This document shows, piece by piece, positions 8,773 to 33,953 of a stretch of 33,993 nucleotides of DNA. The stretch is from the NCBI GenBank assembly GCA_964583985.1, contig CAZOYD010000039.1, forward strand, positions 1 through 33,993, in the 5' to 3' direction. The position numbers were made by a program, and so were the translations under genes. The notes beneath the pieces are model-generated. The model was not told the DNA's origin and did not search any database. It worked only from the letters and a program-made list of their open reading frames with translations. How positions within the stretch are numbered: the first letter of the stretch is position 1; every line of letters starts with the position of its first letter. Source of the stretch: an uncultured archaeon (GTDB lineage Archaea; Asgardarchaeota; Lokiarchaeia; Sigyniarchaeales; SOKP01).

Positions 8773-9702
8773 ATGGATAGAAAAAAATATTTTATGGATA
8801 ATAGGAGACTGAAAAAAAAAGACGTGCCACCTCAAAGAAAAACAGATTATGAAAAACAAAAAACAAGGGAAGAAGTAGAGCAAATTAAAAAAGATCTTAT
8901 CAATTATGCCCAAACTCCTTGGGGTAAGGAGTGGATAATATCAAACCTGAAAATTGGGCGCCCTTTCAGAATGCAAAGAGGGATTGAATATGCCAATGAT
9001 GAAGATCGTATTGATAATATCACAATTAATTCTGGTCAGATATTTGCTACCGTGCAAGGGACAGCCCCTACTCCCTATCGAGTAAAAATAAATTTTGAGC
9101 CCATTCCTGATGAAGGATGGAAAAAAATTGTAAAAGATTTATCTGCAAGATTATATTTTCTCATTGAATTATTGGAGGGAACTTTACCTCAAAATATCAT
9201 TGCGATCTTTGAAAAAAACGAATATCCCCTATTTCCAGATGCAGATAAAGGATTAGATTCTTCATGTTCTTGCCCCGATAAAGCAATTCCTTGCAAGCAT
9301 ATAGCTGCTATAATTTTATACTTAACTCGAGTTATAGATTATAATCCTTTTTTATTATTAGAACTTCGAGGAAAATCTAAAGAAAAAATTCTTGAAGATC
9401 TAAGTATATTTCATCCAATAGATAATGAAAATAATTCCGAAAACTCTACTAAGACAAAGGATATTGAATTTAAATTTAATGTACCTAAAATGTCAATGCA
9501 AGAACTAGCTAAACATTATATTGAAACTAATCAGGATCCCATGAGATTCAATATAAAAAAGCCAGGAAAAATTATTGAAACGCTGGAAAATTTAGGGATT
9601 CCTCAAACGATTGAAAATAAAGCTTTTGAGATTGTATTCAAATCGATCTATAAAGAAATTACAGCCAAAAGTTATGAAATTTCTTTGCATCATCATAAAT
9701 AA
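8773..9702 (+). CDS. SWIM zinc-finger protein (partner of the SNF2 ATPase)
   Basis: RMQRGIEYA, ATVQGTAPTPYRV and CSCPDKAIPCKH (CxC...CxH). The ATG at 8773, preceded by GAGTGA, is preferred over the GTG at 8752. Confidence 0.9.
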   Translation: MDRKKYFMDNRRLKKKDVPPQRKTDYEKQKTREEVEQIKKDLINYAQTPWGKEWIISNLKIGRPFRMQRGIEYANDEDRIDNITINSGQIFATVQGTAPTPYRVKINFEPIPDEGWKKIVKDLSARLYFLIELLEGTLPQNIIAIFEKNEYPLFPDADKGLDSSCSCPDKAIPCKHIAAIILYLTRVIDYNPFLLLELRGKSKEKILEDLSIFHPIDNENNSENSTKTKDIEFKFNVPKMSMQELAKHYIETNQDPMRFNIKKPGKIIETLENLGIPQTIENKAFEIVFKSIYKEITAKSYEISLHHHK

Positions 9703-10346: not shown

Positions 10347-11783
10347 CTACTCGCGAGTTTCACCGCTTTTAACCTTAAAGAAAAAAATCAGAGCAATCAC
10401 AATTAAGAATAATATGAATGGAAACATTATGATATATCGAAAGTCTCCAAATGCATTAAAGGCAGAGAGAATTGCTCCAAATAGAATTGGCGCAACACTA
10501 TATGCCGTTTGATTGAATGTATAATAAATTCCCGTATAGATACCTACTTTTCCTTTAGGTGCCAAAGACCATAATATTGGAAAACTATTAACTATAAATC
10601 CCATCCACGGTATGGCTATCAGCACCAACATAGTACTTACTAAAAGGGGATTATAATTATGATATGTAGTTGGAACAACAAAACCAGCCATTATAATTAT
10701 GGATATTATTAACCAAGCAAGAAATATTTTAATCGCTTTCTTTCGTCCGACCGATTTCTTTTGACCCAAAAGACCAACAAAATAAGCACTTGCAATCATT
10801 GGTGCTGAATAAGCAAGAAATAAAGTTCCAGCGGCGCTTTCTGTAATTTGAAAGTATGCAACAGCAAAACTTGAGAAAAATGATTCTATTGACGCGAATG
10901 CCAAGTACATGAATATGATAGTAGCCAAGAAAAACGAAAAATCTTTATGTTGCTTTACTATATGATAAGCATCTCTATAAGATCTTAATTTATGTTTTGA
11001 AATTTCTTTATCTACTTCGGATAGTTTCTTTTGTCTGGCTAAGAACGTAATTGGATCAATTTCAATCTTAGTTGGTGAAATTTTTAAAAATGTTTCGCCA
11101 GTAGGAGTCTCTTTCACTGTGAAGATTTGGATTAAAATTAATATTATCATTCCAATACCGACTATTATAAAACCTAGTGCGTCAAATAAGAGAGGATCTA
11201 AAGTTCCCTCTAATGCTCCTATTAATATAGGGATAGAAAAGGCGATTAGGCTTCCCATATTAGCAATGAATTGTTGAATTGCACTCCCCTTAGAATACAT
11301 CTTCTCAGGTGTATAATCGGGTAATATAGCGATCGAAGCTGAACGGAAAATAGACATTGCTAGATCGAAAAGGAAAATTATCAAAAACAAACCGGCCAAA
11401 ATACGAATCCAAGGAATAATTACAAAAAATACAGCAGAAGAAACCGTACCGATAATTATGTAAGGCATGCGACGTCCTATCTTACTTTTTGTTCTATCAC
11501 TTAAATCCCCAAAGTAAGGTTGTAAAAAAATAGCAAGAATATTATCCATTGCCATTATAATTCCTTTTACCATATCTTTCAAAACATATGTTCCTAATAC
11601 ATCATCAAGAATTAATGGCACCTTGAAATTGAAATAGGACCAAGCAAATAAAACAATAAAGAATGACAATGAGATCAACATGGTCCTTTTCCCATTCAAT
11701 TTGTTAGGTCCAGAGGGTATCATTCTTGGTTTAAAAGGTAACTCTTCAAACTCTTCGCTATTTTTTCCTTCATTCGAGGTCAT
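10347..11783 (-). CDS. MFS transporter, glycoside-pentoside-hexuronide/sugar:cation symporter-like
   Basis: Multiple hydrophobic helices; motif QPYFGDLSDRTKSKIGRRMPYI. Confidence 0.9.
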   Translation of the reverse strand: MTSNEGKNSEEFEELPFKPRMIPSGPNKLNGKRTMLISLSFFIVLFAWSYFNFKVPLILDDVLGTYVLKDMVKGIIMAMDNILAIFLQPYFGDLSDRTKSKIGRRMPYIIIGTVSSAVFFVIIPWIRILAGLFLIIFLFDLAMSIFRSASIAILPDYTPEKMYSKGSAIQQFIANMGSLIAFSIPILIGALEGTLDPLLFDALGFIIVGIGMIILILIQIFTVKETPTGETFLKISPTKIEIDPITFLARQKKLSEVDKEISKHKLRSYRDAYHIVKQHKDFSFFLATIIFMYLAFASIESFFSSFAVAYFQITESAAGTLFLAYSAPMIASAYFVGLLGQKKSVGRKKAIKIFLAWLIISIIIMAGFVVPTTYHNYNPLLVSTMLVLIAIPWMGFIVNSFPILWSLAPKGKVGIYTGIYYTFNQTAYSVAPILFGAILSAFNAFGDFRYIIMFPFILFLIVIALIFFFKVKSGETRE

Positions 11784-11901: not shown

Positions 11902-12711
11902 ATGCTGGAAGCTGAAGAGTGGTTTGAAATCATAAAAAAAGAGGATCATCTCTACATTATTCGAGAAAGACTTGATGAGATTGATCCACGTTATCTCACA
12001 AAATATACCAATCTATATCTTCTGATTGGTAAAAACAAAGCATTATTGATAGATACGGGAAGTGGTTTATACCCATTAAAACCAAAAATTAAAGATTTGA
12101 TTGACTCAAAAGAATTAATGGTAATTAATACCCATTCTCATTTCGATCATCGCGGGGGGAATGAAGAATTTGATGAAATTTTCATTCATGAGAGCGAGTT
12201 AGAGAATGCTTCGATGGTTTTTGATATTTCTTTTTTAAAAGATTCTCCAAAGAAGAGAGTTCAATTATTTGATAAAAGTAATTTTAAATATCACCCACCT
12301 ACCAAATTGCATCCTTTAAAAGACGGGGATAGATTTGATCTGGGAGATCTTACAGTAAAAATAATTCACACACCAGGGCATTCAATTGGTTCAATCTCAT
12401 TACTAACAAGTCACGATGAACTATTTACTGGGGACACAGCACATTTTGGGGCGATGTACTTACCGAAAAAGAAAGATCTTCCAATATTGCTTTCAAGTTT
12501 ATCAAAATTACTTGATTTGTTTAAAGTACATCCAGATATTGAAATATATCCTTCCCATGAAGATTTTCAAGTCAATAAAGTGTTATTAGAATTATTAATA
12601 CATGGTATACATAACATCGAGACAATATGGGATACTAAAGTAAAAAATACATTCTTACAGGCTTGGGTATTAAATGATAATTTTTTTACGTACGTGTTTG
12701 AAAATTCATAA
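11902..12711 (+). CDS. Metallo-beta-lactamase-fold hydrolase
   Basis: LLIDTG, THSHFDHRGG, HTPGHS, LFTGD and PSH. Confidence 0.92.
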   Translation: MLEAEEWFEIIKKEDHLYIIRERLDEIDPRYLTKYTNLYLLIGKNKALLIDTGSGLYPLKPKIKDLIDSKELMVINTHSHFDHRGGNEEFDEIFIHESELENASMVFDISFLKDSPKKRVQLFDKSNFKYHPPTKLHPLKDGDRFDLGDLTVKIIHTPGHSIGSISLLTSHDELFTGDTAHFGAMYLPKKKDLPILLSSLSKLLDLFKVHPDIEIYPSHEDFQVNKVLLELLIHGIHNIETIWDTKVKNTFLQAWVLNDNFFTYVFENS

Positions 12712-12783: not shown

Positions 12784-14088
12784 ATGACGAAAACACATAA
12801 AATTGTTATTGTGGGAGCAGGTTCCCTTCAATTTGGACTTGGAACCGTCGGTTCTATTATTAATAGTGCCGTTTTAGAAGGCTCAACCATAACTCTACAT
12901 GATATTAATCAAACAAATTTAGATTTAGCTTTAGAAGCTTGTAATGAAGTAATACAACAAGATCATTTAAATTTTTCAGTAGAGGCTACAACAGAAAGAA
13001 AGAAGGCTCTACAAGGGGCAAATTTCATTGTTAATTCAATTGAAGTTGGTCCAAGGTTTGAATGGTTTGATTTAGATTATAGTATACCCCACAAATATGG
13101 TAATAAACAAATTATGGGCGAGAATGGGGGTCCAGGGGGTCTTTTTCATTCTTTAAGAGTCATACCTCCAATTTTAGAAATTTGTGAAGATGTGTCTAAA
13201 ATTTGCCCCAATGCACTTTTTATAAATTATTCTAATCCCATGAGCCGAATTTGTTTAGCAATCAAACGAAAATATCCTTTACTTAAATTTGTTGGATTAT
13301 GTCATGAATTTCATAATTTCAAGATGCATTATGGTCGAATTTTAAATACGCCATTAGAGGATCTTGAAATGAAGGCTGCTGGACTTAATCATTTTGGAGT
13401 GTTGCTTTCTATTAAATACAAGAATTCTGGAAAAGATGCATATCCGGAATTACGTAAAAAAGCTCCTGATTACTTAATGAATTTAAAAGGATTCATGATG
13501 GATGTTAAATTGAATCGATATATTTTAGAGAATTTTGGTTATATACCTTATACAACTGATTCGCATTATGGTGAATATATTGCGTGGGCTTGGGATAAAG
13601 GAGATGTGCAAGGAGCTCGTGATTTTTATAATGGGTATAAACAAGCTACACTATATACTGGGAAAAAAATTCAAAAATTAGTTGAAAAAGGTAAAGGATA
13701 CCGTTTAATAAAACCAGATCCAGAAAGAGCCATTCCAATAATTGAGGGTATATTATCGGATTCGAATCATGAAGAAGCTTCTGTTAATTTACCAAATAAT
13801 GATGTTATTACAAACCTTCCGAATGATTTAGTTGTAGAAGTCCCTGCAATAGTTAATAAGCAAGGACTAAAAGCTGTTAAAGTTGGTGAATACCCGAAAG
13901 GATTGGCCGCTCTTTTGCGCAACCAAGCATCAGTTCAAGATTTAATTGTTGAAGCAATTATTAAAAAATCTAAAGAAATAGCATTTCAAGCCTTGTTATT
14001 GGATCCAACAATAGAAAGCGCTTCAAAAGCTGAAGAAATGTTTGAAGAGATGTTAAAAGTAAATAAGGATCACATCTTTCTTGAGTAA
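12784..14088 (+). CDS. Glycoside hydrolase family 4 (NAD+/Mn2+-dependent alpha-galactosidase/alpha-glucosidase)
   Basis: KIVIVGAGS, ENGGPGG, NYSNP, GLCH, GLNHF and ALLLDP. Confidence 0.92.
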   Translation: MTKTHKIVIVGAGSLQFGLGTVGSIINSAVLEGSTITLHDINQTNLDLALEACNEVIQQDHLNFSVEATTERKKALQGANFIVNSIEVGPRFEWFDLDYSIPHKYGNKQIMGENGGPGGLFHSLRVIPPILEICEDVSKICPNALFINYSNPMSRICLAIKRKYPLLKFVGLCHEFHNFKMHYGRILNTPLEDLEMKAAGLNHFGVLLSIKYKNSGKDAYPELRKKAPDYLMNLKGFMMDVKLNRYILENFGYIPYTTDSHYGEYIAWAWDKGDVQGARDFYNGYKQATLYTGKKIQKLVEKGKGYRLIKPDPERAIPIIEGILSDSNHEEASVNLPNNDVITNLPNDLVVEVPAIVNKQGLKAVKVGEYPKGLAALLRNQASVQDLIVEAIIKKSKEIAFQALLLDPTIESASKAEEMFEEMLKVNKDHIFLE

Positions 14089-17740: not shown

Positions 17741-18571
17741 TCAAATAATATATTTAGGAGTAGCTAAAGTATCTCTATCAGTAATTATTTTGTAATCAGG
17801 ATGATTTCTAATGTGTGTTACAGGATAATCATCTCCAGGTTCACCAAATAAAGCAATTCTTAAAATTGTATTTGCCCAGTCATAAGGACTTCCGTTCCTG
17901 CAATAAAGGCGAATTCTTTTAGCTTCTAAAATCTGTTTCATACCAATTGTATAGGCTTCTTTGGGAAAGTTTTCTAAATTTCCGCCTACATTTGCCCTGA
18001 TCGAATTAATAGTAATGGTATATTTGTTAAGATTAACTTTACGAGGATTTGAGGTAGCAATATTTATATTTGGCTCATTAAATGCAATATGACCGTGAAC
18101 TCCAATCCCTCCATAACAAGAATCTATACCTCCAATCTCGACAATTTTATTTCTAATATTATTTATGTTTTCCTCATTAGGAAAGATGATGTGAGAATCC
18201 TCAATTCCATATTCTTTTAAAGGAAGGAGTAAAGTAGCTTTGGCAATTCTTTTAAAACTTAAAGGATGATTGATTTTAAGTGCAAATCCGCTTTCATCGC
18301 AATACTCATCCATAAAGAAGAACCGACAATTTGATAAACTCAAATTATTTTTCTTAACCATATCTACTAAAAAAGGATATTGGCCGATAGGTCCAATTGG
18401 AAGAATTAAATTTGTAGGTTTGTTATTTTCATTATTTTTATGAATTTTGTTGAAGATATCTTCTGCAAATTTTAAATGTAGTTCTTCTAAGTCTTCACAA
18501 ACAATCAATCGATCTCCTGCCTTCTTAATAACTTCTTCAGGATTTAATTTAAGAAGTGATCTCACTTCCAC
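17741..18571 (-). CDS. Glucosamine-6-phosphate deaminase/isomerase (NagB-like) family protein
   Basis: ILPIGP, FFMDEY and GGIGVHGHIAFNEP; GTG start after AGGAAG. Confidence 0.85.
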   Translation of the reverse strand: MEVRSLLKLNPEEVIKKAGDRLIVCEDLEELHLKFAEDIFNKIHKNNENNKPTNLILPIGPIGQYPFLVDMVKKNNLSLSNCRFFFMDEYCDESGFALKINHPLSFKRIAKATLLLPLKEYGIEDSHIIFPNEENINNIRNKIVEIGGIDSCYGGIGVHGHIAFNEPNINIATSNPRKVNLNKYTITINSIRANVGGNLENFPKEAYTIGMKQILEAKRIRLYCRNGSPYDWANTILRIALFGEPGDDYPVTHIRNHPDYKIITDRDTLATPKYII

Positions 18572-18587
18572 CTTCCTATTGGTAATT

Positions 18588-19364
18588 TTAAATCCCTCCT
18601 AACATCTTTGATATATTTTTATAAAAAATAAGCTCTCGAGTTTTCTGATCTATTTGAAAATTATCCAAACGATTGATATCCTCCGTGAAAATTTGTTGAA
18701 TTGTATTACATATTACATCTGAACCAAAAACAATTTTTTTAAATGCACCTGGCCACCAAAGCCAATGATCCATCCCTATTTTATCTGCTCTTAATCGCCA
18801 ACCATTTGGAGCACCTGAAAGATCAGCATATACATTCTTCTTCATTCGAATTAGCTCTGCAGCGTCATCATTCCAATGGACACCCAAGTGTGCGATGATC
18901 ATCTGTAAATTGGGAAAAGCATTAGCGATGGTCTCAATTCGCATGGGATGCATGTACCATGATGATATTTGTTGATTAGGTTTATGATTAAAGAGAGTTA
19001 CTACTCCGGTATGAAATAAGATTGGCATTTTTAGTTCGCTAGCTGTTTGCCATAAAGGGAAATAATCATAATGATCGTATGGTTTTTTTGGCAAAGTAAC
19101 TTTTAATAACTTAAATCCTTTCTCATTTGCTTCGATTATATCATTCTTAGAGTTAATACCTGGTCGAATGTAAAATGCGCCAATAATTCTATCCGGGTAT
19201 TTTTCCATCGCTTCTTCGACCCCATCATTATTAACACATTTAAATAAATGACCTAATCCACTCAAACAGCATCGTTCAATACCTACTTCATCCATCGCGG
19301 TAATCAAATTTTCAAGATATCCTTGAATATCAAAAAGATGAACATGAGCATCAATAATCCTCAT
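18588..19364 (-). CDS. Amidohydrolase_2-family metal-dependent hydrolase
   Basis: IIDAHVH, ILFHTG, IIAHLG and VFGSD. Confidence 0.9.
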   Translation of the reverse strand: MRIIDAHVHLFDIQGYLENLITAMDEVGIERCCLSGLGHLFKCVNNDGVEEAMEKYPDRIIGAFYIRPGINSKNDIIEANEKGFKLLKVTLPKKPYDHYDYFPLWQTASELKMPILFHTGVVTLFNHKPNQQISSWYMHPMRIETIANAFPNLQMIIAHLGVHWNDDAAELIRMKKNVYADLSGAPNGWRLRADKIGMDHWLWWPGAFKKIVFGSDVICNTIQQIFTEDINRLDNFQIDQKTRELIFYKNISKMLGGI

Positions 19365-20263: not shown

Positions 20264-20404
20264 TAGTATTAAGAATCTCGGATTCTTAGAAATAATTTGT
20301 GTGAAACCCTTAAATCCAATATTTTTTACAAAAATAAAAAAATATAAAAAAGCAAAATAGTATGAAAGAAGTGTGTGTGTGTTTTAATTTTAGGGCTAGC
20401 AAAA

Positions 20405-21316
20405 ATGACTAATAATAACAATGGACTAGAATATGATAAACTAACAAAGATACACGTCATTTGTCCCCATTGTAATAAAAGTAAATTCATTAAGATACCA
20501 ACAAACATAATTAACGAGAGTAAAAATTTAACAACTATTTCAATTCCATTAAATCATATATGTGATCATAGTTTTCAAATATTTGTTGATAATCATTTTG
20601 TAATTCGTGGATATCAAAGAGTAGATTTTGATATTTCTAATTTTGAGATATATTCTGATAGTTCAGATTCAAAAGGAGAAGATCTACTTCTTACTTACAA
20701 TTTTTCTATCATTATCAAAAAAATTGTCCAACTCGTAAGGGAAAATATCAACATTAAAGGGATATTCGGGGGACTAGTATTAACAGAAACGGGTAACCTT
20801 ATTTTTTCTTCTCTTCCCAGTGAAATTTCACTAACTATGATTAGAAAATTTGAACTTCAGAATTCTTTCCCTAAAACTATAAATCAAATATTTTTAGTTT
20901 TAAGTAATAACCAAAAGATTATATCTTCAACATTAATAATTGATAATATAAAAATAATTATTACATTATGTTTTTCTGCAGAAATTGATTATAAAACAGC
21001 AAATTATTATCTGGTGGAATTAAAAAAAAATGTTTTACTATACAGTACAACAGATTCCTCTCAAAATATTTATTGGCTGTATTCTGTTATTCCACAATCA
21101 AACGATTTAGATTCTGATGTACTATTCCTCGATTCCATTGGAATCAAGATTCAAAAATCTGCTATTACTAATATTAATGAGATTGATGAGATTTTGAAAT
21201 CCAAGGATTATAATGGGAAAGTATTTGTAAGTGCAAGATATGTGAGATTAATGGAAGGTTTAATCTGGACATTAAACGAAGCTGCATTGATCATCTCGAA
21301 CTTGAATATGTTCTAA
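20405..21316 (+). CDS. Hypothetical protein with an N-terminal Zn-binding module and a roadblock-like central domain
   Basis: CPHC...ICDHSFQIFVDNHFVIRGYQRVDF, then IFGGLVLTETGNLIFSSLP. The ATG at 20405 is preferred to the GTG at 20375, which sits in a GT repeat. Confidence 0.65.
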   Translation: MTNNNNGLEYDKLTKIHVICPHCNKSKFIKIPTNIINESKNLTTISIPLNHICDHSFQIFVDNHFVIRGYQRVDFDISNFEIYSDSSDSKGEDLLLTYNFSIIIKKIVQLVRENINIKGIFGGLVLTETGNLIFSSLPSEISLTMIRKFELQNSFPKTINQIFLVLSNNQKIISSTLIIDNIKIIITLCFSAEIDYKTANYYLVELKKNVLLYSTTDSSQNIYWLYSVIPQSNDLDSDVLFLDSIGIKIQKSAITNINEIDEILKSKDYNGKVFVSARYVRLMEGLIWTLNEAALIISNLNMF

Positions 21317-21472
21317 AACATCAAAAGGGAAACATATGAGAAATACTGGAAAATGAAATTTTACAACTCTCACAAAAAATTAACCAAACAATTTTTATTG
21401 AAAAAATTCATATAATCTAATAGAATTCATTCTTGATGTTATCTTACAATTTTATTAAACAAGGTTTTAAAA

Positions 21473-23341
21473 ATGATTCCAAAACAAATGGATGCTTACC
21501 TAAAAGAACATTTACCAGTAGGAACCTTAGAAAATCGGTTAATCAAAGAAGAGGAGCGAAGATATCTAGAATTTCGCAATATTGATGAACTCCTTTTATC
21601 AAGTTTAGGGATTGTAAGTGATAAGGTAGGGCCCAATCTTGTAATTTGCCTATGGGACGAAGAATCTCCCGAAGAAATCGGAGGTTATTTGGTTGTGGAT
21701 AATTTATCAATGGGACAGCCTTCGATGGGAGGAATTCGTATGCTTCCAAATGTAAAGCCGTCTGACATTCATAATTTAGCAAGGGGCATGACCTTAAAAA
21801 ATGCAGCCGCAAATTTACCTTATGGTGGAGGTAAAGCCGGAATAGTTGCAGAAAGAGGGTTACCATTAGAACAACATCAAAAAATTGTTCGCGGATTTGC
21901 TCGATTAATAAAAAAATATCGAGAAATCTACATCCCTGGTCCTGATGTTGGTACTAACGATTCAGACATGATGACGATTGCTATTGAAAATGGAATAGAC
22001 AGTGCTCTTTCTAAACCATTAGCAATGGGAGGAAATAGAATTGATGAACTGGGAGGTGCTGCTGGCGGTGTAGTTACTGCCCTACAGACGCTTATAGAAA
22101 TAATGCCAAGATTAAGGGTTTTACCTCAATTCTCGAAACTTGAAATTCCCAAGATAGAGGATTTAACAATTATGATACAAGGATTTGGAGCTGTTGGAGC
22201 TCATGCTGCCAGGATTTTTAAAGAAAGGATCCATTGGGTTAAAATAACGGGTATAAGTGATTTAGAAGGATATTTATACAACGAAGCTGGTCTACCGGTA
22301 GAGGAACTATATGGTTATTGGAAAGATAAAGGATTGGTAACCAAAAACTACTACATTGATAAATTACTATCAAAGGGATATGATAGTCCAATAAAATTCT
22401 CTAATAATTCAAATAACCTTCTTTTAGAGGATAGTTTCTGCTTTATTCCTGCAGCACCTATTTTTAACTATTTAGGTGTTAGGAAGAATGAAGGGTTGCA
22501 TGAAAATCCATCTATGACCGTGGATCGAATGGGACGATGGAGCCTAATAATTGAGGGAGCAAATACTTATTCACCTGATCCGAATAGAAAAGCTGCAAGA
22601 ATTAGGATGGAGCAAATTGTATTTAAAGATAAAGGAGTCATGATAGCGAATGATTATTTAGTAAATTCTGGTGGCGTTATTTTTGCGGCTCAAGAAAAAA
22701 TAATCAGTACTCCAGAGCAATTACAAATTCCTGAGAACATGCTTGGTGATCGTGATGCTGTTCTTTCTTGGCTTGAAAAACATAGTCAAGAATTTGCGGA
22801 ACTTTCCAAAAAACGATTAATTGCTGGAGAGGAATACCGTAAAAAAGTTATTCACCATAATATGATAGAATTAGTCGATATATTAGCAGCAAATTCAGAT
22901 TTATTACCATGTATGGCTGCTGAAAAAATTAGCTTACAGAGATTAGTAGCTAAAGAAAAAGAATTGACAGCAAAAGATATAATGGAAACACTTCCAACAA
23001 TTGATATGAATAGTACTGCTCAAGAAGCAGCTGCTTTAATAATTAGTGAAAATAGTGGAATTATTGCAGTTTTAGAAGAAAAAAAACTTGTAGGAGTCGT
23101 TACAGATTGGGATATAACAAAAGCAATGGCAGAAAATGCCTGTGATGTAAATCTTAGCGAAATAATGACAAAAAATGTGATTATAGCTCCCCCAGATTAT
23201 ACTATACTTGAACTCGTTAGAAAATTGGAACAGCATAGAATTTCTGCGATACCAATCGTTGAAGAAGGAAAAGTCATGGGCAAAGTTAGTTCAGATTTAA
23301 TTACTCAAAGATACGTCCTGCAAAATTTAAGAGAAACATAA
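21473..23341 (+). CDS. Glu/Leu/Phe/Val dehydrogenase with a C-terminal CBS-domain pair
   Basis: GGIR, MTLK, GGGKAG, GPDVGT, QGFGAVG, EGAN and NSGGV. CBS motifs from about 22961: TAKDIM, LVGVVTDWDI, SEIMTKNV, ISAIPIV. Confidence 0.92.
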   Translation: MIPKQMDAYLKEHLPVGTLENRLIKEEERRYLEFRNIDELLLSSLGIVSDKVGPNLVICLWDEESPEEIGGYLVVDNLSMGQPSMGGIRMLPNVKPSDIHNLARGMTLKNAAANLPYGGGKAGIVAERGLPLEQHQKIVRGFARLIKKYREIYIPGPDVGTNDSDMMTIAIENGIDSALSKPLAMGGNRIDELGGAAGGVVTALQTLIEIMPRLRVLPQFSKLEIPKIEDLTIMIQGFGAVGAHAARIFKERIHWVKITGISDLEGYLYNEAGLPVEELYGYWKDKGLVTKNYYIDKLLSKGYDSPIKFSNNSNNLLLEDSFCFIPAAPIFNYLGVRKNEGLHENPSMTVDRMGRWSLIIEGANTYSPDPNRKAARIRMEQIVFKDKGVMIANDYLVNSGGVIFAAQEKIISTPEQLQIPENMLGDRDAVLSWLEKHSQEFAELSKKRLIAGEEYRKKVIHHNMIELVDILAANSDLLPCMAAEKISLQRLVAKEKELTAKDIMETLPTIDMNSTAQEAAALIISENSGIIAVLEEKKLVGVVTDWDITKAMAENACDVNLSEIMTKNVIIAPPDYTILELVRKLEQHRISAIPIVEEGKVMGKVSSDLITQRYVLQNLRET

Positions 23342-23351: not shown

Positions 23352-24176
23352 TTAAGTTGGTGGACCTCTATCTATTCTTTGGTGAATGAGTTCCAATTTT
23401 GTTGATGCTCCTATATAAGTTAAACCCCACGTTACACCTACTTGCTCATACTTTTCTATCGTTTTTTTATCAGTAATTCCACTTAATTTCACCACATCAA
23501 ACGGTGTTTTTAAATCCCGATGCTCAAATATGAAATCATGCATCGTTTTAAAGTCTTTATCCGTAAGTTTACCATAAGCACCAGTACTTAAAGGAAAAAC
23601 ACCATCAAGTTTTGCAGATCTGATAAATGGAAGCTTATTTGGCCAGAACCCTGAGCCCCATATTTTTATTCTTGGTTCTTGAAATGGTTTTGGAAGAAAT
23701 TTAACTTGATCTATGTTAAAATGCTTTCCATGATAAGAAAAATCTTTTCCTTCCCATAAACCAAGTAATATGTCTAATCCTTCATCTAATTTTTCAGCTC
23801 TAATTTTTGCATTGGTTTCCTCTCCAAAAGATCCATATTCAACATCAGCTGGAGTCCCAAGACCAATGGAAAGTATTAATCTACCCTTAGAAAGATGGTC
23901 AAGGGTTACCGTCTCTCGAGCCAATTTCCAAGGTCTTCTTCTGGGTAGTGGAGTAACGGTTGTTCCAAACTTTATTTTCTCCGTTTTCATAGCAATTGCT
24001 GATAATGCAATCCAAGGATCTACCATTGGATTTTTAGTTGGCTTTTCTGCAAGAATATGATCAAATATAAAGAATCCATCCCAACCACATTCCTCTGCTC
24101 GATTAGCTAAATCTGCTAAGTTATTTGCATATCCTAAAATTTTACCGTAATTTGGCATGTAAAGACCGAATTTCAT
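23352..24176 (-). CDS. LLM-class flavin/F420-dependent oxidoreductase
   Basis: MKFGLYMP, GWDGFFIFDH, DPWIALSAIA, TLDHLSKGRLILSIGLG and PKPFQEPRI. ATG at 24176 follows GTGAT. Confidence 0.9.
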   Translation of the reverse strand: MKFGLYMPNYGKILGYANNLADLANRAEECGWDGFFIFDHILAEKPTKNPMVDPWIALSAIAMKTEKIKFGTTVTPLPRRRPWKLARETVTLDHLSKGRLILSIGLGTPADVEYGSFGEETNAKIRAEKLDEGLDILLGLWEGKDFSYHGKHFNIDQVKFLPKPFQEPRIKIWGSGFWPNKLPFIRSAKLDGVFPLSTGAYGKLTDKDFKTMHDFIFEHRDLKTPFDVVKLSGITDKKTIEKYEQVGVTWGLTYIGASTKLELIHQRIDRGPPT

Positions 24177-24242
24177 AATTATCACTGGAAAAATTATATT
24201 TAATCATGTATTTCTTTCTTTAAGAAAATTGTTATTTATTGA

Positions 24243-25568
24243 TTGAGAGAATTGAAAGGAGAAATCAATATTGGCGTTATTTGCCTAGCTAGGAAAACTT
24301 TTGACTATAAAGCTGCGTTAGAAATATACAAGAATATTATAACTGATCTGGGTAATATTGAGAATGTAAATTGGGAAGTTATACCAGAATTACTAATCGA
24401 AATAACAGATGCTCAAACTGCAAGTCACCTATTAGCATCCAAAGAAATTGATGCTTTAATATGCATAAGTGGGACATTTGCTTTAGGACATTTGATTTTA
24501 GAGTTTAATAAAGTACTCAAAAAGCCAATATTATTATGGGGATTAAATGAGCTACCTTATGATGGAGGAAAAATTAGACTTAATTCCGTGTGTGGTATAA
24601 ACCTTAATTCTAGTAACTTGTATAAAGCAGGAGTGAAAAATTACCACGTAATTATTGGAGATAAAGTTGATGAAGATTGGCTGGATGCAATACGTATTAT
24701 GAAAGCATTTTCTTCTGTACGTATAGGAATTATTGGATATAGAGCTAATGGTTTTTTTAATTTAGATGTAGATGAACTTGACTTGTATCGAAAGACTGGG
24801 ATCTTAATAGATCATTATGAGCTAAGTGAAATTTTCAATTTTAAAGTGGAGAATGAGCTCATCTTGAAGAGAAAAGAGCAAATTGATTCGATTTTTGATG
24901 TATCATCTATATCTGAACATCAATTAGAGAAAGTTTCAGAACTTACTGCTAAGCTTTCTGAGTTTATGAATTATCACCAATTAACTGCTTTAGCTATTAG
25001 ATGTTGGCCCGAATTTGCTTCAGATTTTGGTATTTCCCCTTGTGCTGCAATGTCAGTATTGCAATCAGAAGGAAAAATATTAGCTTGTGAAGGAGATATC
25101 TTGGGAGCACTTTCAATGTTGGCACATAAAGTCATAGGAGGTGAAACTCCATTTCTATCGGATTTCTCTCAAGTAAATTTTCAAAAAGACTTTGGATTAC
25201 TTTGGCACTGTGGAGTTGCTGCTTGCAATCTTTGGGATAAAAAATGCAATATTTCTTTAGATAGTTATTTTGCTGAAGGAAAGGGGGTTACTGCTGATTT
25301 TGTAATGAAATCGGGAGAATTATCCCTTTTAAGGTTAGATTATTCACCTGGAGAATATCATATCTTTTTACAAAAAGGAAAAGGAATTCCAATGGAGAAG
25401 GAGTTAAAAGGTACGTATGTCAAAGTGGAATTTGAAGATAATGTAAGAGTAATATTAGATAAGATTATTAATAATGGTATCGCACATCATATATCCGTCG
25501 TTTATGGAGATTTTGTTCGCCCTTTAGAAATATATGCTAAATTAATGGAATGGAAAGTGATAAAATGA
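24243..25568 (+). CDS. L-fucose/L-arabinose isomerase-superfamily protein, sulfoquinovose isomerase (SqvD/SftI)-like
   Basis: ARKTFD, GTFA, GGKIRLNSVCG, GFF, LAIRCWPEF, ACEGD, WHCG and HHISVVYGD. The family call is firm; the SqvD-likeness rests on recalled motifs and gene context. Confidence 0.8.
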   Translation: MRELKGEINIGVICLARKTFDYKAALEIYKNIITDLGNIENVNWEVIPELLIEITDAQTASHLLASKEIDALICISGTFALGHLILEFNKVLKKPILLWGLNELPYDGGKIRLNSVCGINLNSSNLYKAGVKNYHVIIGDKVDEDWLDAIRIMKAFSSVRIGIIGYRANGFFNLDVDELDLYRKTGILIDHYELSEIFNFKVENELILKRKEQIDSIFDVSSISEHQLEKVSELTAKLSEFMNYHQLTALAIRCWPEFASDFGISPCAAMSVLQSEGKILACEGDILGALSMLAHKVIGGETPFLSDFSQVNFQKDFGLLWHCGVAACNLWDKKCNISLDSYFAEGKGVTADFVMKSGELSLLRLDYSPGEYHIFLQKGKGIPMEKELKGTYVKVEFEDNVRVILDKIINNGIAHHISVVYGDFVRPLEIYAKLMEWKVIK

Positions 25569-27517
25569 TCAAGTATATGGCAACAAATAGGGGATTTGAC
25601 CTTTTTTTTAAAAACTATAAATTTTTTTCTCATTCAGTCAGTAATCCTTGCTTTGAAATAGGTATTGGTTTTGGCAAATATAAACAAAACCATTCCGCTT
25701 TTACAATAAAAGAAAAGAATTTGAAAAGAATTCCCCTTATTAATTTTAAAGTACTTTCAGAATTGGATAATCAAATCATTATTGAATTCAGTAGTGACGA
25801 AAATAGCATGGTCATAGAATTTTTCGTCAAAGAAAATAAATTAATTATAACTCCTAAATGTGAAACTTCTTTTATTAATCGTTTTTGGATGAATTTAAAT
25901 GCGAATGAGGAAGAGGCTATTTTTGGATGTGGAGAACAATTCCTGAATATAAACTTAAGAGATGAAATTGTTCCAATATGGGTTGAAGATGCCTCGCCTC
26001 CATCAAGAGGAAAACACACATACTATCCTCAACCTAATTTTATATCCACTAATAATTATTTCTGCCATGTTGAGACGAACTTCTATTCAAGTTTTAATTT
26101 TAAGGAGAAAAATAGGCATAAATTGCAAATCTGGGAAATCCCTAAAGAAATTTATATTGGAAAATATGATAATCTTTTAGAAGCAGTTAAAAATCTAAGC
26201 TTTTTTCTTGGACTACAGCCAAAACCAGCAGATTGGATATATGATGGCATTTGGTTAGGAATTCAAGGAGGCCCTGATATAGTTGATATAAAAATAAAAA
26301 AAGCATTACAGCATGGCGTAAAAGTTTCAGCAGTATGGTGTCAAGATTGGCAAGGTATACGATATACCTCATTCGGAAAACAATTATTCTGGGATTGGAA
26401 ATATGATGAAAAAATTTACCCAGATCTCCCAAAATATATAAAAAGTCTGAATAAAAAGGGGATTAAATTTCTTGGATACATTAATATAATGCTCGCTATT
26501 GAAGGTACTCTGTATAAAGAAGCATCTAAAAAGGGTTACTGTATAAAAAACAAAGATGGTGATGATTATCAGGTCCTGATGACTGATTTTCCAGCAGCTC
26601 AAATAGATTTAACAAATCCAGAAGCGATCGACTGGTTGAAATCTGTGATTAAAGAATACATGGTCGGTATTGGATTAAATGGATGGATGATTGATTATGG
26701 AGAATATTTACCAATCGATCCAAAGTTATTCTCAGGAATATCAGGAGAAGAATTTCACAATCAAGTTCCAACGATATGGACAAAACTCAATTATGATGTA
26801 CTTAAAGAGGAAAATTTGTTTGGCGAAGTTATCTTTTTCACTCGTTCAGGTTTCACGGGCACATCTAAGTACTCCTTAATGGTTTTTTCGGGGGATCAGC
26901 GCGTGGATTGGGATGAAAAAGTAGGTCTCCCTTCAGTTATTCCTGGAGCAATCAATATTGGATTAGCAGGAATAGGCTTTTATCATTTTGATATTGGTTG
27001 TTATACTACATATGGTATATTTAAAAGAGAAAAAGAATTATTCATGAGATCAGCTGAAATGGCAACATTTACCATGATGATGCGCACTCACGAGGGAAAT
27101 CGACCAGATAATAATTGGCAATTCGATTCTGATGACGAAACTTTGGATCACTTGGCTAATATGGTTAATATACATCTTGCGTTAAAACCTTATTTAAAAC
27201 ATTTATCAGATGAATATTATGAATCAGGATTACCACCTATCCGAGGGCTTTTCTTGCATTATCAAGATGATCCTGAATTATACAAGATTAAATTTCAATA
27301 TCTGTTTGGAAAAGACTTGCTTGTTGCACCGGTTATTAAACCAAATTGTAAAATTTGGAAAGTTTATTTACCAGATGATAGTTGGATTCATATTTGGACA
27401 GGTAAAGAATACAGTGGTGGATGGATTGAAGTAGATTCACCAATAGGATTTCCTCCAGTTTTTTATCGTCGAGATTGTGAATATCGAACTTTATTTGACT
27501 CTATATCCAAGCATTAA
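25565..27517 (+). CDS. GH31 alpha-glucosidase, YihQ/sulfoquinovosidase-like
   Basis: FGCGEQF, TYYPQP, LGIQGG, QDWQGIRYTSFGKQLFWDW, WMIDYGEY (nucleophile), GDQRVDW (acid/base), DIGCYTT and MMRTHEGN. The start overlaps the isomerase stop (ATGA 25565-25568). Confidence 0.9.
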   Translation: MIKYMATNRGFDLFFKNYKFFSHSVSNPCFEIGIGFGKYKQNHSAFTIKEKNLKRIPLINFKVLSELDNQIIIEFSSDENSMVIEFFVKENKLIITPKCETSFINRFWMNLNANEEEAIFGCGEQFLNINLRDEIVPIWVEDASPPSRGKHTYYPQPNFISTNNYFCHVETNFYSSFNFKEKNRHKLQIWEIPKEIYIGKYDNLLEAVKNLSFFLGLQPKPADWIYDGIWLGIQGGPDIVDIKIKKALQHGVKVSAVWCQDWQGIRYTSFGKQLFWDWKYDEKIYPDLPKYIKSLNKKGIKFLGYINIMLAIEGTLYKEASKKGYCIKNKDGDDYQVLMTDFPAAQIDLTNPEAIDWLKSVIKEYMVGIGLNGWMIDYGEYLPIDPKLFSGISGEEFHNQVPTIWTKLNYDVLKEENLFGEVIFFTRSGFTGTSKYSLMVFSGDQRVDWDEKVGLPSVIPGAINIGLAGIGFYHFDIGCYTTYGIFKREKELFMRSAEMATFTMMMRTHEGNRPDNNWQFDSDDETLDHLANMVNIHLALKPYLKHLSDEYYESGLPPIRGLFLHYQDDPELYKIKFQYLFGKDLLVAPVIKPNCKIWKVYLPDDSWIHIWTGKEYSGGWIEVDSPIGFPPVFYRRDCEYRTLFDSISKH

Positions 27518-29075: not shown

Positions 29076-32000
29076 ATGAACATTCAAATTCAAGGAGCGC
29101 AAGAAAATAACCTCAAAAATTTTGATATTGAAATCGGTGAAGGATTGACTGCTGTGACTGGAGTATCCGGATCTGGTAAATCTTCGCTTGTTTTTAATAT
29201 TATTTATCATGAAGCACGTAGACGATTCTTAGAACAGTTTTCTTCTAGTTCAAGAGGTATTAGATTGGAACCAGCAAGGGTAGACTCGATTAAGGGTTTA
29301 AAGCCTGTGGTTGCTGTTGGTCAAAATCTATTAAATAGAAATCCAAATTCTATTTTAGCCACGGCATCAGGAATTCACCCTCTCTTAAGGATGTTATATG
29401 CAAGATTTGGAAAAAGGAAATGTCCCAACTGTCTTTCTGATATTTCAATTACTTCGGAAGATGAAATAGTTAAAATATTGATGAAAGAAAAACTGATTGG
29501 AGATATTATAATACTTGCTCAGTTGGTTAAATCTTCTATTGGAACTCATAAGACGTTATTAGGTTTTCTTTATGAGGAATTTGGTGAAAATTTGATTGTT
29601 GATGGAGAACCTTGGAATAAAAATGAACTTGCATCTAATGAACCTCATGATATTGATATTAAAATCTCCGTTCTTGGAAAGAGGAATTCTATAAATGAAG
29701 TTCGTAACACAATTAAAATGATAAAGTCATTAGGAACACATGTTCTACAGATTAAAAATGATGATAATAAAAAAGTTAGTTATTCACTAACTAATACTTG
29801 TTCTGAGTGTGGAGCTTATTTATTTCAAGTGGAACCAAAACATTTCAATATGGAATGTCCTTATTGTAATAGTAAAGGATGTGATAAATGCTCGCAAACA
29901 GGAATGCTTCCCTTAGTTTCTAATATTACGATAGATAATAAGATCTTTCCACAGGTATTAGAATTATCTGTTGAAAAATTTAAAGAAATTATTAATACGA
30001 TTGATCTCCCCCCAACTTCTCAAAGGATTCTTCAAGAAATAACAAAGCGCTTGACAGCATTGCATAAAGTTGGATTAGGATATTTATCTTTAAATCGATC
30101 TTCACCCTCACTTTCAAGGGGAGAAGCTCAACGGGTTAGAATAGCACTTACTTTGATTAATGATTTGGAGGACATTCTTTATGTATTAGATGAACCTACT
30201 ATTGGTCAACATCCATATGATGTTAATCAATTCTTACCAAATTTTCGAGATTTAAAAGGTTCAGTTATTTATGTAGAACATGATAAACTTGCCGTGTCAA
30301 TAGCAGATAACGTTATTGATCTAGGACCTAACGCGGGGCAAAATGGTGGTGAAATCACATTTATGGGCACTCCAACAGAATTGTGGCTATCTAATACACT
30401 CACGGGAAGATATTTTAGTTCAAGAGATAAAATAGATTTGCCCAAATTGAGATCAAGTCCAAAAGAATTTATATTTATTGAGGGGGCAACGCTACATAAT
30501 CTAAAAAAAATTAACGTAAAAATCCCTCTTCATTGTGTTTCTGTCGTTACTGGTGTATCTGGGTCGGGTAAAAGTACTTTAATAGAGGATGTTTTATATC
30601 AATCTTTAGCTAAGAAAAAGCCGATTGGATGCGTCAGAATAGATGCTCCAGAGATAAAAGCAATAATGGTAGATCAGAGCCCTATAGGAAAAAATCCTAG
30701 GTCAAATCCTGCAACTTACACTAAAATCGCAGATATTTTGAGGAGATTCTTTGAAAAAGAAACAGGTCTGGATTCATCATATTTTTCGTTTAACAGACCA
30801 GAAGGTGCTTGTCCTACGTGCAAAGGAATGGGAGCAATCGAAGTTAACATGAAATATTTACCATCGACTTGGATATCTTGTTCTGATTGTGATCAACAAA
30901 GATTTAAAGAAGAGATCTTAGAGAAAAAAATAAAAATTGGGAGCAAAAGGCTATCAATCGCTGATGTTTTTAATCTTAATATTACTGAATTGAAAAATTT
31001 AATCAAATCAGATGATAGGATATCAACTGGAGACTTAGAAAACTTGGTAGCAATGTTAAAAACTCTTGAAGATATTGGGTTAGGTTATTTACCCTTAGGG
31101 CAACCTTCTCCATCACTTTCTGGAGGAGAAGCCCAACGTATTAAATTGGCAAAATATTTAGGCAAAAAAGAACTTAGTGATCATCTAATTATCCTTGATG
31201 AACCATCAACAGGACTTCATACAAAAGATATAGAAAATTTACTTACTATTTTTGATAAATTAACAAGAGAAGGAGCAACTATCCTAATTGTAGAACATAA
31301 TATAGATATTATCAAAGCTGCAGATTGGATTATTGATTTAGGTCCAAAAGCTGGAGAGGATGGAGGAAACCTAATTTATTCGGGTAAATTAGATGGATTA
31401 CTTAAATTGGAAGAAAATTCTCTTACTTCGAAAGCATTAATTATGGATGCCTTAATCAAACCTTCCTCCTTAGAAAAAAAGAGTATACATCATGAAAATA
31501 TTATCATTAAAAAAGCACGTGCAAATAACTTAAAAAATATATCGCTTGAAATACCAAAAAGCAAAATCACCGTGATAACAGGGGTTTCAGGATCTGGGAA
31601 ATCGAGTTTATTGAATAATGTGATTGAGACAGAAGCAAGAAAACGGTTCTTGGAAACTCTGAGCATGTATGAACGTCAAGGAACTAGAGAAAAAGTAACT
31701 GCAGATGTGGATAGTATCTTAGGATTGGGGATAACGTCATCCATAACTCCCACGGAAGAACTTTATTTTACTCGTTTTAAAATACGTAATACCATTGGGA
31801 TAGTTACTGAAATTTCATATCTCCTTTCAATTTTGTTAGCTTTTGTGGGAGAAATGAATTGCCCTCAATGTGGATCCATAACAACAAGGAAAGATACTCT
31901 ATTCCAATGTCAAAAATGTGGATTTGAAATGAGAATTCCGAAACCATCATACTTCCACACTTCATCTTATGTAGGTGCGTGTACAAAATGTCATGGTGTT

Positions 32001-33953
32001 GGAACAATACAACAACCTAAACCTGAAAAACTTATTATAAACCCAGATAAACCAATTTGCAAAGGGGCAATGTATTCACCTGGTTTTTTTCCTAAAGGAT
32101 TTCTATGTAAACCATATAATGGAGGATATTATATGCTTCAAGCACTTGCAAAACATTATAATTTTGATCCTTTCCTAACTCCTTGGAATGAAATGGCTAA
32201 ACCCGCACAACAGGCTTTTCTTCATGGAGATAATGTTAAGCTGAAAGTAACCTATGAGAATAAGAAAGGTCAAGTATACGAAAAAGAAGAAAAATATCCC
32301 GGATTTTACGAAGGTTATATCAGAGACTGGGATATTGGAGGCACTTATACTGAAACCATACCATGTTCAAGTTGTAATGGAGCGAAGCTTAAACCTGAAT
32401 ATTTATCTATCACCTTAGGAGATTTTAATATTCATCAATTAAGTGAAATTCCATTAACAGACCTATTTGAAAAATTAGAATCTTTAAATTTAAAAAATTT
32501 GAAAACCCGCTTGATAAAGAATAGTGCAGAGACAATTTTACGAAGATTAAGTTTTTTAATCAAGACAGGTTTAGGATATGTCAACCTAAATCGAATTGCG
32601 GGTTCACTTTCTGCCGGTGAAACACAAAGAATCAGGTTAGCGGGATTACTTGGAAGTGAGTTATCATCTCTAACCATACTATTAGATGAACCATCGAGAG
32701 GCTTACACCCTACAGAATTAGGCGCTTTACAAGAAGTTTTATATGACCTTCGAGATATGGGAAATACTCTCATCGTTGTGGAACATGACATACAATTGAT
32801 TAAAAATTCTGATTATATAATCGATTTAGGACCAGAGGCCGGGATTAATGGAGGTTATATCACTGCTCAAGGTAATCCTAAAGAATTTATACATGAAAAT
32901 TCAATCACCGCTAAATGGATGAGAGGAGATGTTCAATTTACTATTAACCCAAGAAAATTAAAACCAAAAAAGTGGTTAGAGATTATAGGAGCTAAAGAAA
33001 ATAATCTCAAGGGAAACATTGTTCAAATCCCTCACAATTATTTGGTAGGAATATGTGGTGTATCTGGTTCAGGTAAAAGTTCCTTAATTGTTGATACATT
33101 AGGTAGAATTTTGTCTCCAAAAAAGCAAACCACCTCAGTAGCTTATGAACCAATTTTACCAGGAAAATATGAAGATCTTAAAGGAATATTATCTGAAAAT
33201 ATAATAATTGATCAATCAAAAGAAAAAGTAAATCGCCCATTGAAATTCTTGAAATTAGATAAAGATTTATTAAAAATTTATTCCGACTCAGAGGATGCAC
33301 AACTTAAAGGTTATTCTGAGAGAGATTTAAGTAAAAAATGTTCCGCGTGTGATGGGAAAGGTGTGATAAAAACAGAGATGGGATTTTTACCAGATATTTT
33401 TGATAATTGTGAGATTTGTAAAGGTACTGGCTACTCTCAAGAATCATGGGATATTCGCGTTAATGGTTTTTCCCTTCCTGAACTAAATTATTTAACTTTT
33501 GTTGAAATAGGGAAATTATTTTATTATGTGGAACCAATCAAACGAAAAATAGATTTACTTAAAAAAGTAGGATTAGGATATCTAAAATTAAATCAACCAC
33601 TCGTTACTCTCTCTGGTGGTGAAGTTCAACGCTTGAAAATCGTCAAGGAGCTAAATAGAAAGAGCAAGAAAAAAACTTTATATATTTTAGATGAACCAAC
33701 TGTAGGATTACATTTAGAAGATGTATCGCGGTTGATCAATGTTCTTCAAGATTTGGTTGATGAAGGTAATACAGTAGTCACAATTGAACATCATCCTCAT
33801 TTCTTAGCGTCTTGTGATTGGTTAATTGAACTTGGACCAGTAGGAGGTCCCAATGGCGGATATATAATTGCTGCCGGAACCCCTTCCGAAATAGCATGGA
33901 TGAATACCCCTACCGCACCTTACATAAAAGAAATTTTGGAGGGATCGCAATGA
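29076..33953 (+). CDS. uvrA: Double-length UvrA-family ABC ATPase (two UvrA units in tandem)
   Basis: Four Walker A GVSGSGKS, four signatures (LSRGE, LSGGE, LSAGE, LSGGE), four LDEP and several CxxC pairs. Confidence 0.9.
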   Translation: MNIQIQGAQENNLKNFDIEIGEGLTAVTGVSGSGKSSLVFNIIYHEARRRFLEQFSSSSRGIRLEPARVDSIKGLKPVVAVGQNLLNRNPNSILATASGIHPLLRMLYARFGKRKCPNCLSDISITSEDEIVKILMKEKLIGDIIILAQLVKSSIGTHKTLLGFLYEEFGENLIVDGEPWNKNELASNEPHDIDIKISVLGKRNSINEVRNTIKMIKSLGTHVLQIKNDDNKKVSYSLTNTCSECGAYLFQVEPKHFNMECPYCNSKGCDKCSQTGMLPLVSNITIDNKIFPQVLELSVEKFKEIINTIDLPPTSQRILQEITKRLTALHKVGLGYLSLNRSSPSLSRGEAQRVRIALTLINDLEDILYVLDEPTIGQHPYDVNQFLPNFRDLKGSVIYVEHDKLAVSIADNVIDLGPNAGQNGGEITFMGTPTELWLSNTLTGRYFSSRDKIDLPKLRSSPKEFIFIEGATLHNLKKINVKIPLHCVSVVTGVSGSGKSTLIEDVLYQSLAKKKPIGCVRIDAPEIKAIMVDQSPIGKNPRSNPATYTKIADILRRFFEKETGLDSSYFSFNRPEGACPTCKGMGAIEVNMKYLPSTWISCSDCDQQRFKEEILEKKIKIGSKRLSIADVFNLNITELKNLIKSDDRISTGDLENLVAMLKTLEDIGLGYLPLGQPSPSLSGGEAQRIKLAKYLGKKELSDHLIILDEPSTGLHTKDIENLLTIFDKLTREGATILIVEHNIDIIKAADWIIDLGPKAGEDGGNLIYSGKLDGLLKLEENSLTSKALIMDALIKPSSLEKKSIHHENIIIKKARANNLKNISLEIPKSKITVITGVSGSGKSSLLNNVIETEARKRFLETLSMYERQGTREKVTADVDSILGLGITSSITPTEELYFTRFKIRNTIGIVTEISYLLSILLAFVGEMNCPQCGSITTRKDTLFQCQKCGFEMRIPKPSYFHTSSYVGACTKCHGVGTIQQPKPEKLIINPDKPICKGAMYSPGFFPKGFLCKPYNGGYYMLQALAKHYNFDPFLTPWNEMAKPAQQAFLHGDNVKLKVTYENKKGQVYEKEEKYPGFYEGYIRDWDIGGTYTETIPCSSCNGAKLKPEYLSITLGDFNIHQLSEIPLTDLFEKLESLNLKNLKTRLIKNSAETILRRLSFLIKTGLGYVNLNRIAGSLSAGETQRIRLAGLLGSELSSLTILLDEPSRGLHPTELGALQEVLYDLRDMGNTLIVVEHDIQLIKNSDYIIDLGPEAGINGGYITAQGNPKEFIHENSITAKWMRGDVQFTINPRKLKPKKWLEIIGAKENNLKGNIVQIPHNYLVGICGVSGSGKSSLIVDTLGRILSPKKQTTSVAYEPILPGKYEDLKGILSENIIIDQSKEKVNRPLKFLKLDKDLLKIYSDSEDAQLKGYSERDLSKKCSACDGKGVIKTEMGFLPDIFDNCEICKGTGYSQESWDIRVNGFSLPELNYLTFVEIGKLFYYVEPIKRKIDLLKKVGLGYLKLNQPLVTLSGGEVQRLKIVKELNRKSKKKTLYILDEPTVGLHLEDVSRLINVLQDLVDEGNTVVTIEHHPHFLASCDWLIELGPVGGPNGGYIIAAGTPSEIAWMNTPTAPYIKEILEGSQ

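Follow-up and report, generated by a model that had tools for sequence, protein, structure and literature searches.

Candidate orphaned entry module of a sulfoquinovose transaldolase gene cluster in an Asgard archaeon

Sulfoquinovose, a sulfur-containing sugar abundant in plants and algae, is produced at about 10 billion tonnes per year. Its degradation by the sulfoglycolytic transaldolase (sulfo-TAL, or sulfo-SFT) pathway is known from Priestia megaterium/P. aryabhattai and Eubacterium rectale, where the genes are SftG/SqvC, SftI, SftT/SqvA, and SftR. The literature that we searched describes sulfoquinovose degradation in bacteria only, and a 2026 review reports no pathway characterized in archaea (PMC12890257). 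We present here the analysis of two adjoining genes, for a glycosidase and a sugar isomerase, in a 33,993-nucleotide window (positions 1 to 33,993 of contig CAZOYD010000039.1, assembly GCA_964583985.1) from an uncultured archaeon of the Asgardarchaeota (Lokiarchaeia, Sigyniarchaeales, SOKP01). An original prediction, made from the letters of this window, had read the genes as sulfoquinovosidase-like and sulfoquinovose-isomerase-like, had proposed that the organism may use sulfoquinovose, and had held such use to be unreported in Asgard archaea, which agrees with the literature searched.

Judged by sequence comparison, the two genes are orthologs of the sulfo-TAL glycosidase (SftG/YihQ-like) and aldose-ketose isomerase (SftI-like), as predicted, and in related archaea they lie beside a sulfofructose transaldolase gene. 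By gene order the pair belongs to an Asgard type of sulfo-TAL cluster. We consider it the orphaned entry module of such a cluster, with no demonstrated working pathway, because the transaldolase gene was deleted in place and none of the follow-on enzymes tested for was found; we give this reading a probability of roughly 55%. Since the deleted gene is the one for the sugar-splitting transaldolase, this genome probably cannot run the sulfo-TAL route that its close relatives appear to have.

Both open reading frames are intact at the predicted positions (Table 1). The isomerase stop codon TGA (25566-25568) overlaps an in-frame ATG of the glycosidase at 25565 to give the predicted ATGA, and the identical 4-base overlap is found in the gene calls of five relatives (loci L005 to L008 and L099). 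A second in-frame ATG for the glycosidase lies upstream, at 25550. Where the isomerase starts is uncertain; from TTG at 24243 the protein has 441 amino acids, and from TTG at 24252 it has 438, as in most relatives. The window is AT-rich, with a G+C content of about 31%. Named homologs of both proteins come almost entirely from Asgard archaea (Promethearchaeota and Heimdall-, Hermod-, Hod-, Thor-, and Lokiarchaeota).

Three glycoside hydrolase family 31 (GH31) domains were found in the glycosidase. It scores 749.3 bits against the NCBIfam model PRK10426 (YihQ; cut-off, 553 bits; E value, 4e-225), which places it inside the YihQ orthologous group, and its best solved matches are all sulfoquinovosidases or their close kin, namely 8r56, 5aed (Escherichia coli YihQ; E value, 3.5e-184), 6pnr (E. 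rectale SftG), and 5ohs (Agrobacterium tumefaciens). The GH31 alignment to E. coli YihQ is full length, with about 42% identity, and the YihQ-type motifs listed in the original prediction are all present. Residues were equated through the ungapped GH31 alignment to 5aed, whose numbering is that of native E. coli YihQ. The nucleophile Asp405 and the acid/base Asp472 correspond without gaps to Asp377 and Asp444, and Gln262, Gln288, Trp304, and Tyr508 are kept as Gln234, Gln260, Trp276, and Tyr480, respectively; all six are shared with the four solved enzymes. Arg301, in contrast, is replaced by Gln273, so that the pocket signature reads QQQWY. The predicted motif QDWxGIRxTSFG is present but ends one residue before the position of Arg301; it is followed by K-Q in the window and by K/A-R, with the sulfonate-binding Arg301, in all four solved sulfoquinovosidases. 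Further differences from those enzymes (E. coli numbering) are S503F, G507C, H501Y, and the change of Ser/Asn474 to Arg446.

The isomerase gives only a weak Pfam match (Fucose_iso_C), and its single NCBIfam match is SftI (NF048012), at 229.4 bits against an equivalog cut-off of 700. That model gives 829.5 bits to P. megaterium SftI, 402.7 to the isomerase of a gut-type sulfo-TAL cluster, and 215 to the isomerase of Caloramator; the cut-off is narrow, because even the gut-type SftI scores just 402.7. BLAST found P. megaterium SftI at 30% identity (E value, 2e-63), and neither E. coli FucI (E value, 1.3) nor AraA (no match) was significant. The isomerase tree has three SftI-type groups, with FucI and AraA outside them on very long branches, and the deep forks are unresolved; a grouping of the window protein with FucI or AraA, away from SftI, was not seen. 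The three groups consist of Bacillaceae, of gut Clostridia, and of Asgard archaea with Caloramator, Spirochaetota, and Erysipelotrichales, so that the window isomerase stands in a subfamily separate from Priestia SftI and common to Caloramator and Spirochaetota. SftI-type isomerases share 43 invariant columns, including RLN, RCWP.F, and WH.G. The motifs RKTFD, RLNS, RCWPEF, and WHCG, which the prediction had ascribed to "SqvD/SftI," are all present, with most of their residues invariant relative to P. megaterium SftI. The likeness to SftI is thus borne out, but the other name is wrong, as SqvD is a DUF4867 cupin and not an isomerase (PMC11968277). In Caloramator proteoclasticus DSM 10124, the same isomerase subtype sits with a transaldolase and a glycosidase of the canonical QQRWY signature. 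A sequence search found no related solved structure.

Among relatives, the glycosidase is 85% identical to that of the window in L099 (the nearest), 82% in L008, and 70% in L006 and L007. The gene order in the nearest relatives is an Asgard-specific gene of 313 to 327 amino acids, a 222-amino-acid transaldolase, a Glu/Leu/Phe/Val (ELFV)-dehydrogenase-CBS fusion, the isomerase, and the GH31 glycosidase. Their transaldolase scores 319 bits against BmSF-TAL (8bc3), its best solved match, and 159 against the best ordinary transaldolase. A scan of species genomes yielded 370 relatives of this transaldolase. More than 30 of the best 80 are Asgard loci, including one in the complete genome of "Candidatus Lokiarchaeum ossiferum," and most of the Asgard loci carry the isomerase within 10 kb, often with a YihQ-like GH31 as well. 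The trio of transaldolase, isomerase, and GH31 recurs in Asgard archaea (L005 to L008, L019, L028 to L036, and L099) and in bacteria, including the characterized P. megaterium cluster. The sulfo-TAL cluster is widespread but patchy in Asgard archaea.

Compared with the P. megaterium pathway, the relatives of this archaeon share all three core families, encoded in the same neighborhood. The relatives' transaldolase is 65% identical to its P. megaterium counterpart, the window glycosidase 43%, and the window isomerase 30%. A YihU-family reductase and a sugar transporter occur in L019, where the order is transaldolase, YihU-family reductase, isomerase, and GH31, with an MFS_2 symporter and a sulfatase nearby. 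The Asgard clusters differ in their archaeal host and in their accessory genes; DUF4867 (SftX) was not noted in the annotated loci, and a NagB-like and an Amidohydro_2 gene are carried instead. The genome analyzed here differs further in its deleted transaldolase and in that no reductase was found.

In "Ca. Lokiarchaeum ossiferum" (L043; CP104013.1, 1772181-1792864), transaldolase, reductase, aminotransferase, Mem_trans carrier, and isomerase genes occur together. The transaldolase and reductase genes there directly adjoin ESCRT genes (Vps4, ESCRT-II, and EAP30), the isomerase follows 5 kb downstream, and no GH31 gene lies within 10 kb. A fusion of a sulfite-oxidase-family molybdoenzyme with DUF4079 (SorA-like, 104 bits) is encoded between transaldolase and isomerase in some relatives (L006:5595-6617 and L028:10787-11839); it hints at sulfite handling, and a 58%-identical copy is found on contig C30 of the present genome.

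The DNA of the window is colinear with that of L099 at 78 to 86% identity, with two exceptions, a deletion of the transaldolase gene and an insertion carrying a luciferase-like (LLM) oxidoreductase gene. Bases 1565 to 2317 of L099, which hold the transaldolase gene and its leader (about 750 bp), correspond to just 60 bp of the window (21317-21376). The translated relic contains two in-frame stops and matches transaldolase residues 26 to 50 at 12 of 26 positions, a score reached by none of 300 shuffles. The transaldolase was lost in place, inside the window. The original prediction had placed the downstream genes outside the window; the transaldolase is indeed absent, but its conserved slot lies within the window, and the deletion there left a relic. 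No flanking repeats or signs of mobile elements were found around either the deletion or the insertion.

The assembly comprises 3.8 Mb in 138 contigs and is rated 100% complete with 5% contamination. No transaldolase was found in it, either as a PF00923 match or with the relatives' transaldolase as the query, and the search likewise found no transketolase, no class II aldolase, and no homolog of YihR, YihS, YihT, or YihU. For the reduction of sulfolactaldehyde, the assembly has no homolog of YihU or of the Asgard/Lokiarchaeum beta-hydroxyacid reductase; this search did not extend to aldehyde dehydrogenases or tungsten aldehyde oxidoreductases. The genome-wide search for transaldolase, transketolase, and reductases that had been proposed with the prediction thus came back empty. 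A sulfoglycolytic Embden-Meyerhof-Parnas (sulfo-EMP) route was rejected, as there is no YihS or YihT homolog and no class II aldolase, and YihV finds only weak generic PfkB matches. The assembly encodes four DeoC-family aldolases and 11 PfkB kinases. The two DeoC loci inspected (on C73 and C19), together with the PfkB gene on C19, lie in unrelated housekeeping surroundings of DNA repair, proline, histidine, and replication genes.

The chemistry of the pair most likely runs from an alpha-sulfoquinovoside through sulfoquinovose to sulfofructose, an assignment with a probability of about two in three, the pocket without arginine being the reason for doubt. The GH31 enzyme would hydrolyze the alpha-sulfoquinovoside with retention, using Asp377 as the nucleophile and Asp444 as the acid/base, and the isomerase would convert the released sulfoquinovose to 6-deoxy-6-sulfofructose. 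In the relatives, the adjacent sulfofructose transaldolase would then transfer C1 to C3 to glyceraldehyde-3-phosphate, leaving sulfolactaldehyde to be reduced by a YihU-family reductase. With its third gene lost by in-place deletion, the present genome would make sulfofructose at most. The proposal that the organism uses sulfoquinovose is therefore unsupported, given the deleted transaldolase, the downstream enzymes not found, and a glycosidase without the canonical arginine.

Several points weigh against an orphaned sulfo-TAL module. The assembly is fragmented, and a downstream gene may be unassembled or of an unfamiliar type. Both genes are intact and under purifying selection, which is hard to reconcile with a useless remnant, except after a recent loss. 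The isomerase falls far below the SftI equivalog cut-off. The sulfonate-recognition motif of sulfoquinovosidases is Q/E-RWY (Q288, R301, W304, and Y508; PMC12780224), from which the window glycosidase departs by Gln273 in place of Arg301, and no assayed Arg-less YihQ-like glycosidase was found in the literature searched.

The first two of these points would also fit a working sulfoquinovose catabolism in which sulfofructose is split by an enzyme that was unassembled, unbinned, or of an unrecognized family. The ratio of nonsynonymous to synonymous substitution rates (dN/dS) of the two genes is about 0.15 (0.11 to 0.17 against L099 and L008). The conserved columns show no decay, since, of the columns invariant in its clade, the glycosidase departs from only two, a number in the range of the relatives. 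Private substitutions in the glycosidase number 52 in the window lineage and 28 in L099 (binomial P = 0.01), but this is no different from a control gene with 22 and 16 (Fisher P = 0.57), so that relaxed selection after the deletion was not detected. The accessory NagB-like and Amidohydro_2 genes are also kept, as is a major facilitator superfamily (MFS) transporter gene in synteny with the relatives, and an assembly in 138 contigs leaves room for a missed gene. Against this stands the place of the loss; the transaldolase is gone from its own conserved slot, where there is no assembly gap and a relic is left, and no transaldolase, transketolase, class II aldolase, YihT, YihU, or other reductase was found in an assembly rated complete. 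The genus gives the same picture. Among 17 congeners, transaldolase, isomerase, and GH31 occur together in 6, none of the three occurs in 10, and 1 (G013) has a partial copy of the isomerase with an ordinary transaldolase. All six congeners with the pair thus also carry the transaldolase, and the genome analyzed here is the only one in the survey with isomerase and GH31 and no transaldolase of any kind. We regard an intact pathway of this sort as unlikely.

About equally unlikely is an action of the pair on another sugar, with the GH31 freeing a plain alpha-glucoside or one otherwise substituted at C-6 and the isomerase making the matching ketose. It draws on the pocket, where Arg301 has become Gln, S503F, G507C, and H501Y set the enzyme apart from the canonical clade, and Arg446 is a clade-specific gain. 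It also draws on the distinctness of the isomerase subfamily from the assayed SftI, and on the glycosidase tree. In this tree of 163 YihQ-like proteins, the canonical QQRWY clade includes E. coli, Priestia, and Caloramator, and 19 bacterial sequences with QQQWY, most of them from Clostridia of the gut and rumen, form its sister clade. Mixed pockets (QQQWY, QQRWF, QQQWF, QQNWF, and QQLYF) mark a large radiation made up mostly of Asgard sequences. The clade of the window glycosidase, with 31 sequences, has QQQWY throughout, with Gln at the Arg301 position in all 31.

The company that these enzymes keep, however, argues against a different sugar. The same GH31 clade and isomerase subtype adjoin a transaldolase that is BmSF-TAL-like, and all 19 bacterial QQQWY glycosidases adjoin a sulfofructose transaldolase together with an isomerase of the SftI type. 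Arg-less GH31s also serve as the glycosidases of bacterial sulfo-TAL clusters. The counterparts of Gln288, Trp304, and Tyr508 are retained as well. The bacterial Arg-less enzymes (L079 to L098) share with the window glycosidase Gln301, Tyr508, a basic residue at E. coli position 474, and the neighboring transaldolase and SftI-type isomerase. They differ in forming a separate clade, in having His474, and in their pairing with the gut-type SftI (403 bits). In the window clade, position 474 is Arg446 (in GDQRVDW), two residues past the acid/base Asp. None of about 66 sequences with Arg301 has a basic residue at 474, and many sequences with Gln301 have Leu there. The distribution reflects two independent gains of a basic residue on a Gln301 background and suggests a relocated positive charge in the Arg-less pockets, although such a pattern is no proof.

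After the loss of the transaldolase, the product of the retained pair may feed an undescribed route, such as a flavin- or F420-linked one resembling the Entner-Doudoroff pathway, which we consider improbable; the Arg-less glycosidase would then grip the sulfonate through a relocated arginine, Arg446. Candidates for such a route are the LLM oxidoreductase, the lactonase-like NagB and Amidohydro_2 pair, and an enolase-superfamily dehydratase (Table 1). The NagB-like and Amidohydro_2 genes adjoin the transaldolase in 12 or more Asgard loci from several lineages, are confined among the relatives to transaldolase-bearing genomes, and were seen in none of the bacterial sulfo-TAL clusters compared. 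They are a real accessory of the Asgard cluster, and one possibility is that they act as a lactonase or deaminase on a sulfonated analog of a 6-phosphosugar. They are no replacement for the transaldolase, because they are also present where it is present. The Asgard-specific 313-amino-acid protein has no Pfam or NCBIfam match, and Atlas returns only Asgard hypothetical proteins for it; in L099 (78% identity), L028, and L035, homologs of it precede the transaldolase. The LLM oxidoreductase gene (277 amino acids) lies on the insertion, 848 bp relative to L099, between the ELFV gene and the isomerase, and a 41%-identical paralog is found on contig C124. It was rejected as a cluster member, as it is near the cluster in none of the related loci compared and its congener homologs lie elsewhere. 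A specific rewiring after the transaldolase loss, in which LLM oxidoreductase, NagB-like protein, Amidohydro_2 protein, and an enolase-superfamily dehydratase form an Entner-Doudoroff-like sulfosugar path, is the least likely of the explanations; the LLM gene is inserted right beside the isomerase, its family includes the F420-dependent glucose-6-phosphate dehydrogenase, and lactonase-like and aldonate-dehydratase-like genes keep synteny with the cluster in five Asgard loci, but the best models of the LLM protein are generic F420 LLM families rather than that of the dehydrogenase, the analysis turned up no candidate for a keto-deoxy-sulfogluconate aldolase, and the accessory genes occur alongside the transaldolase too.

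The ELFV-dehydrogenase with a C-terminal CBS pair (622 amino acids) is very divergent, at 92 bits to archaeal GdhA against a cut-off of 750. It is a single-copy gene in 15 of 17 genus genomes and absent from the 12 other genomes of the order that were searched. As a genus-wide core gene it is not part of the module, and it was rejected as a replacement sulfolactaldehyde enzyme, being present in cluster-less congeners and on another contig in G008.

Farther upstream, the enolase-superfamily dehydratase-like, MFS transporter, and metallo-beta-lactamase-fold genes occur in the same order before the cluster in L005, L019, L020, L022, and L028; in the window, a pair of SNF2 helicase and SWIM genes is inserted among them. 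The window also encodes an NAD/Mn-dependent glycoside hydrolase family 4 (GH4) enzyme that is alpha-galactosidase-like (313 bits, below the cut-off), and L029 and L030 have 72%-identical copies a few kilobases away from their transaldolase. Because GH4 enzymes often act on 6-phospho-glycosides, it could conceivably take a sulfonated substrate. Downstream of the pair, a 1,625-amino-acid protein combines several ABC ATPase domains with a UvrA DNA-binding domain and is about 1.7 times the normal length of UvrA.

Table 1. Features of the window discussed in the text (positions in the window)
Feature	Coordinates	Strand	Evidence or remarks
Enolase-superfamily aldonate-dehydratase-like gene	4363-5448	+	
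SNF2 helicase and SWIM gene pair	5562-9702		
MFS transporter	10347-11783	-	
Metallo-beta-lactamase-fold gene	11902-12711	+	
GH4 glycosidase	12784-14088	+	
NagB/6-phosphogluconolactonase-like protein	17741-18571	-	NCBIfam nagB, 94 bits, below cut-off; Atlas, 6-phosphogluconolactonase family
Amidohydro_2 protein	18588-19364	-	Pfam PF04909, 71 bits; always paired with NagB-like gene
Asgard-specific 313-amino-acid protein	20375-21316	+	Directly upstream of transaldolase in relatives
Deletion scar and relic of sulfofructose transaldolase gene	21317-21395	+	DNA alignment with L099; translated relic
ELFV-dehydrogenase-CBS fusion	21473-23341	+	
LLM oxidoreductase	23352-24185	-	F420-dependent LLM families; TIGR03619, 125 bits, below cut-off
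SftI-like sugar isomerase (fucose-isomerase superfamily), 441 amino acids	24243-25568	+	NCBIfam, BLAST, alignment, locus context
ATGA stop/start overlap coupling isomerase and GH31	25565-25568	+	
YihQ-family GH31 glycosidase, 650 amino acids	25565-27517	+	PRK10426, PDB alignments, catalytic Asp
ABC ATPase/UvrA-domain protein	29076-33953	+	

Read as an orphaned entry module, the pair would represent a natural case of a sulfo-TAL cluster being dismantled. Within one genus the cluster is an accessory trait that is gained and lost (6 of 17 congeners), and a match to YihQ and SftI alone is no predictor of sulfoquinovose use. The arginine of the published sulfonate motif is absent from whole clades of glycosidases in sulfo-TAL clusters, twice with a basic residue two positions past the acid/base Asp. 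Counts of sulfoquinovose degraders in motif-based surveys may therefore err in either direction.

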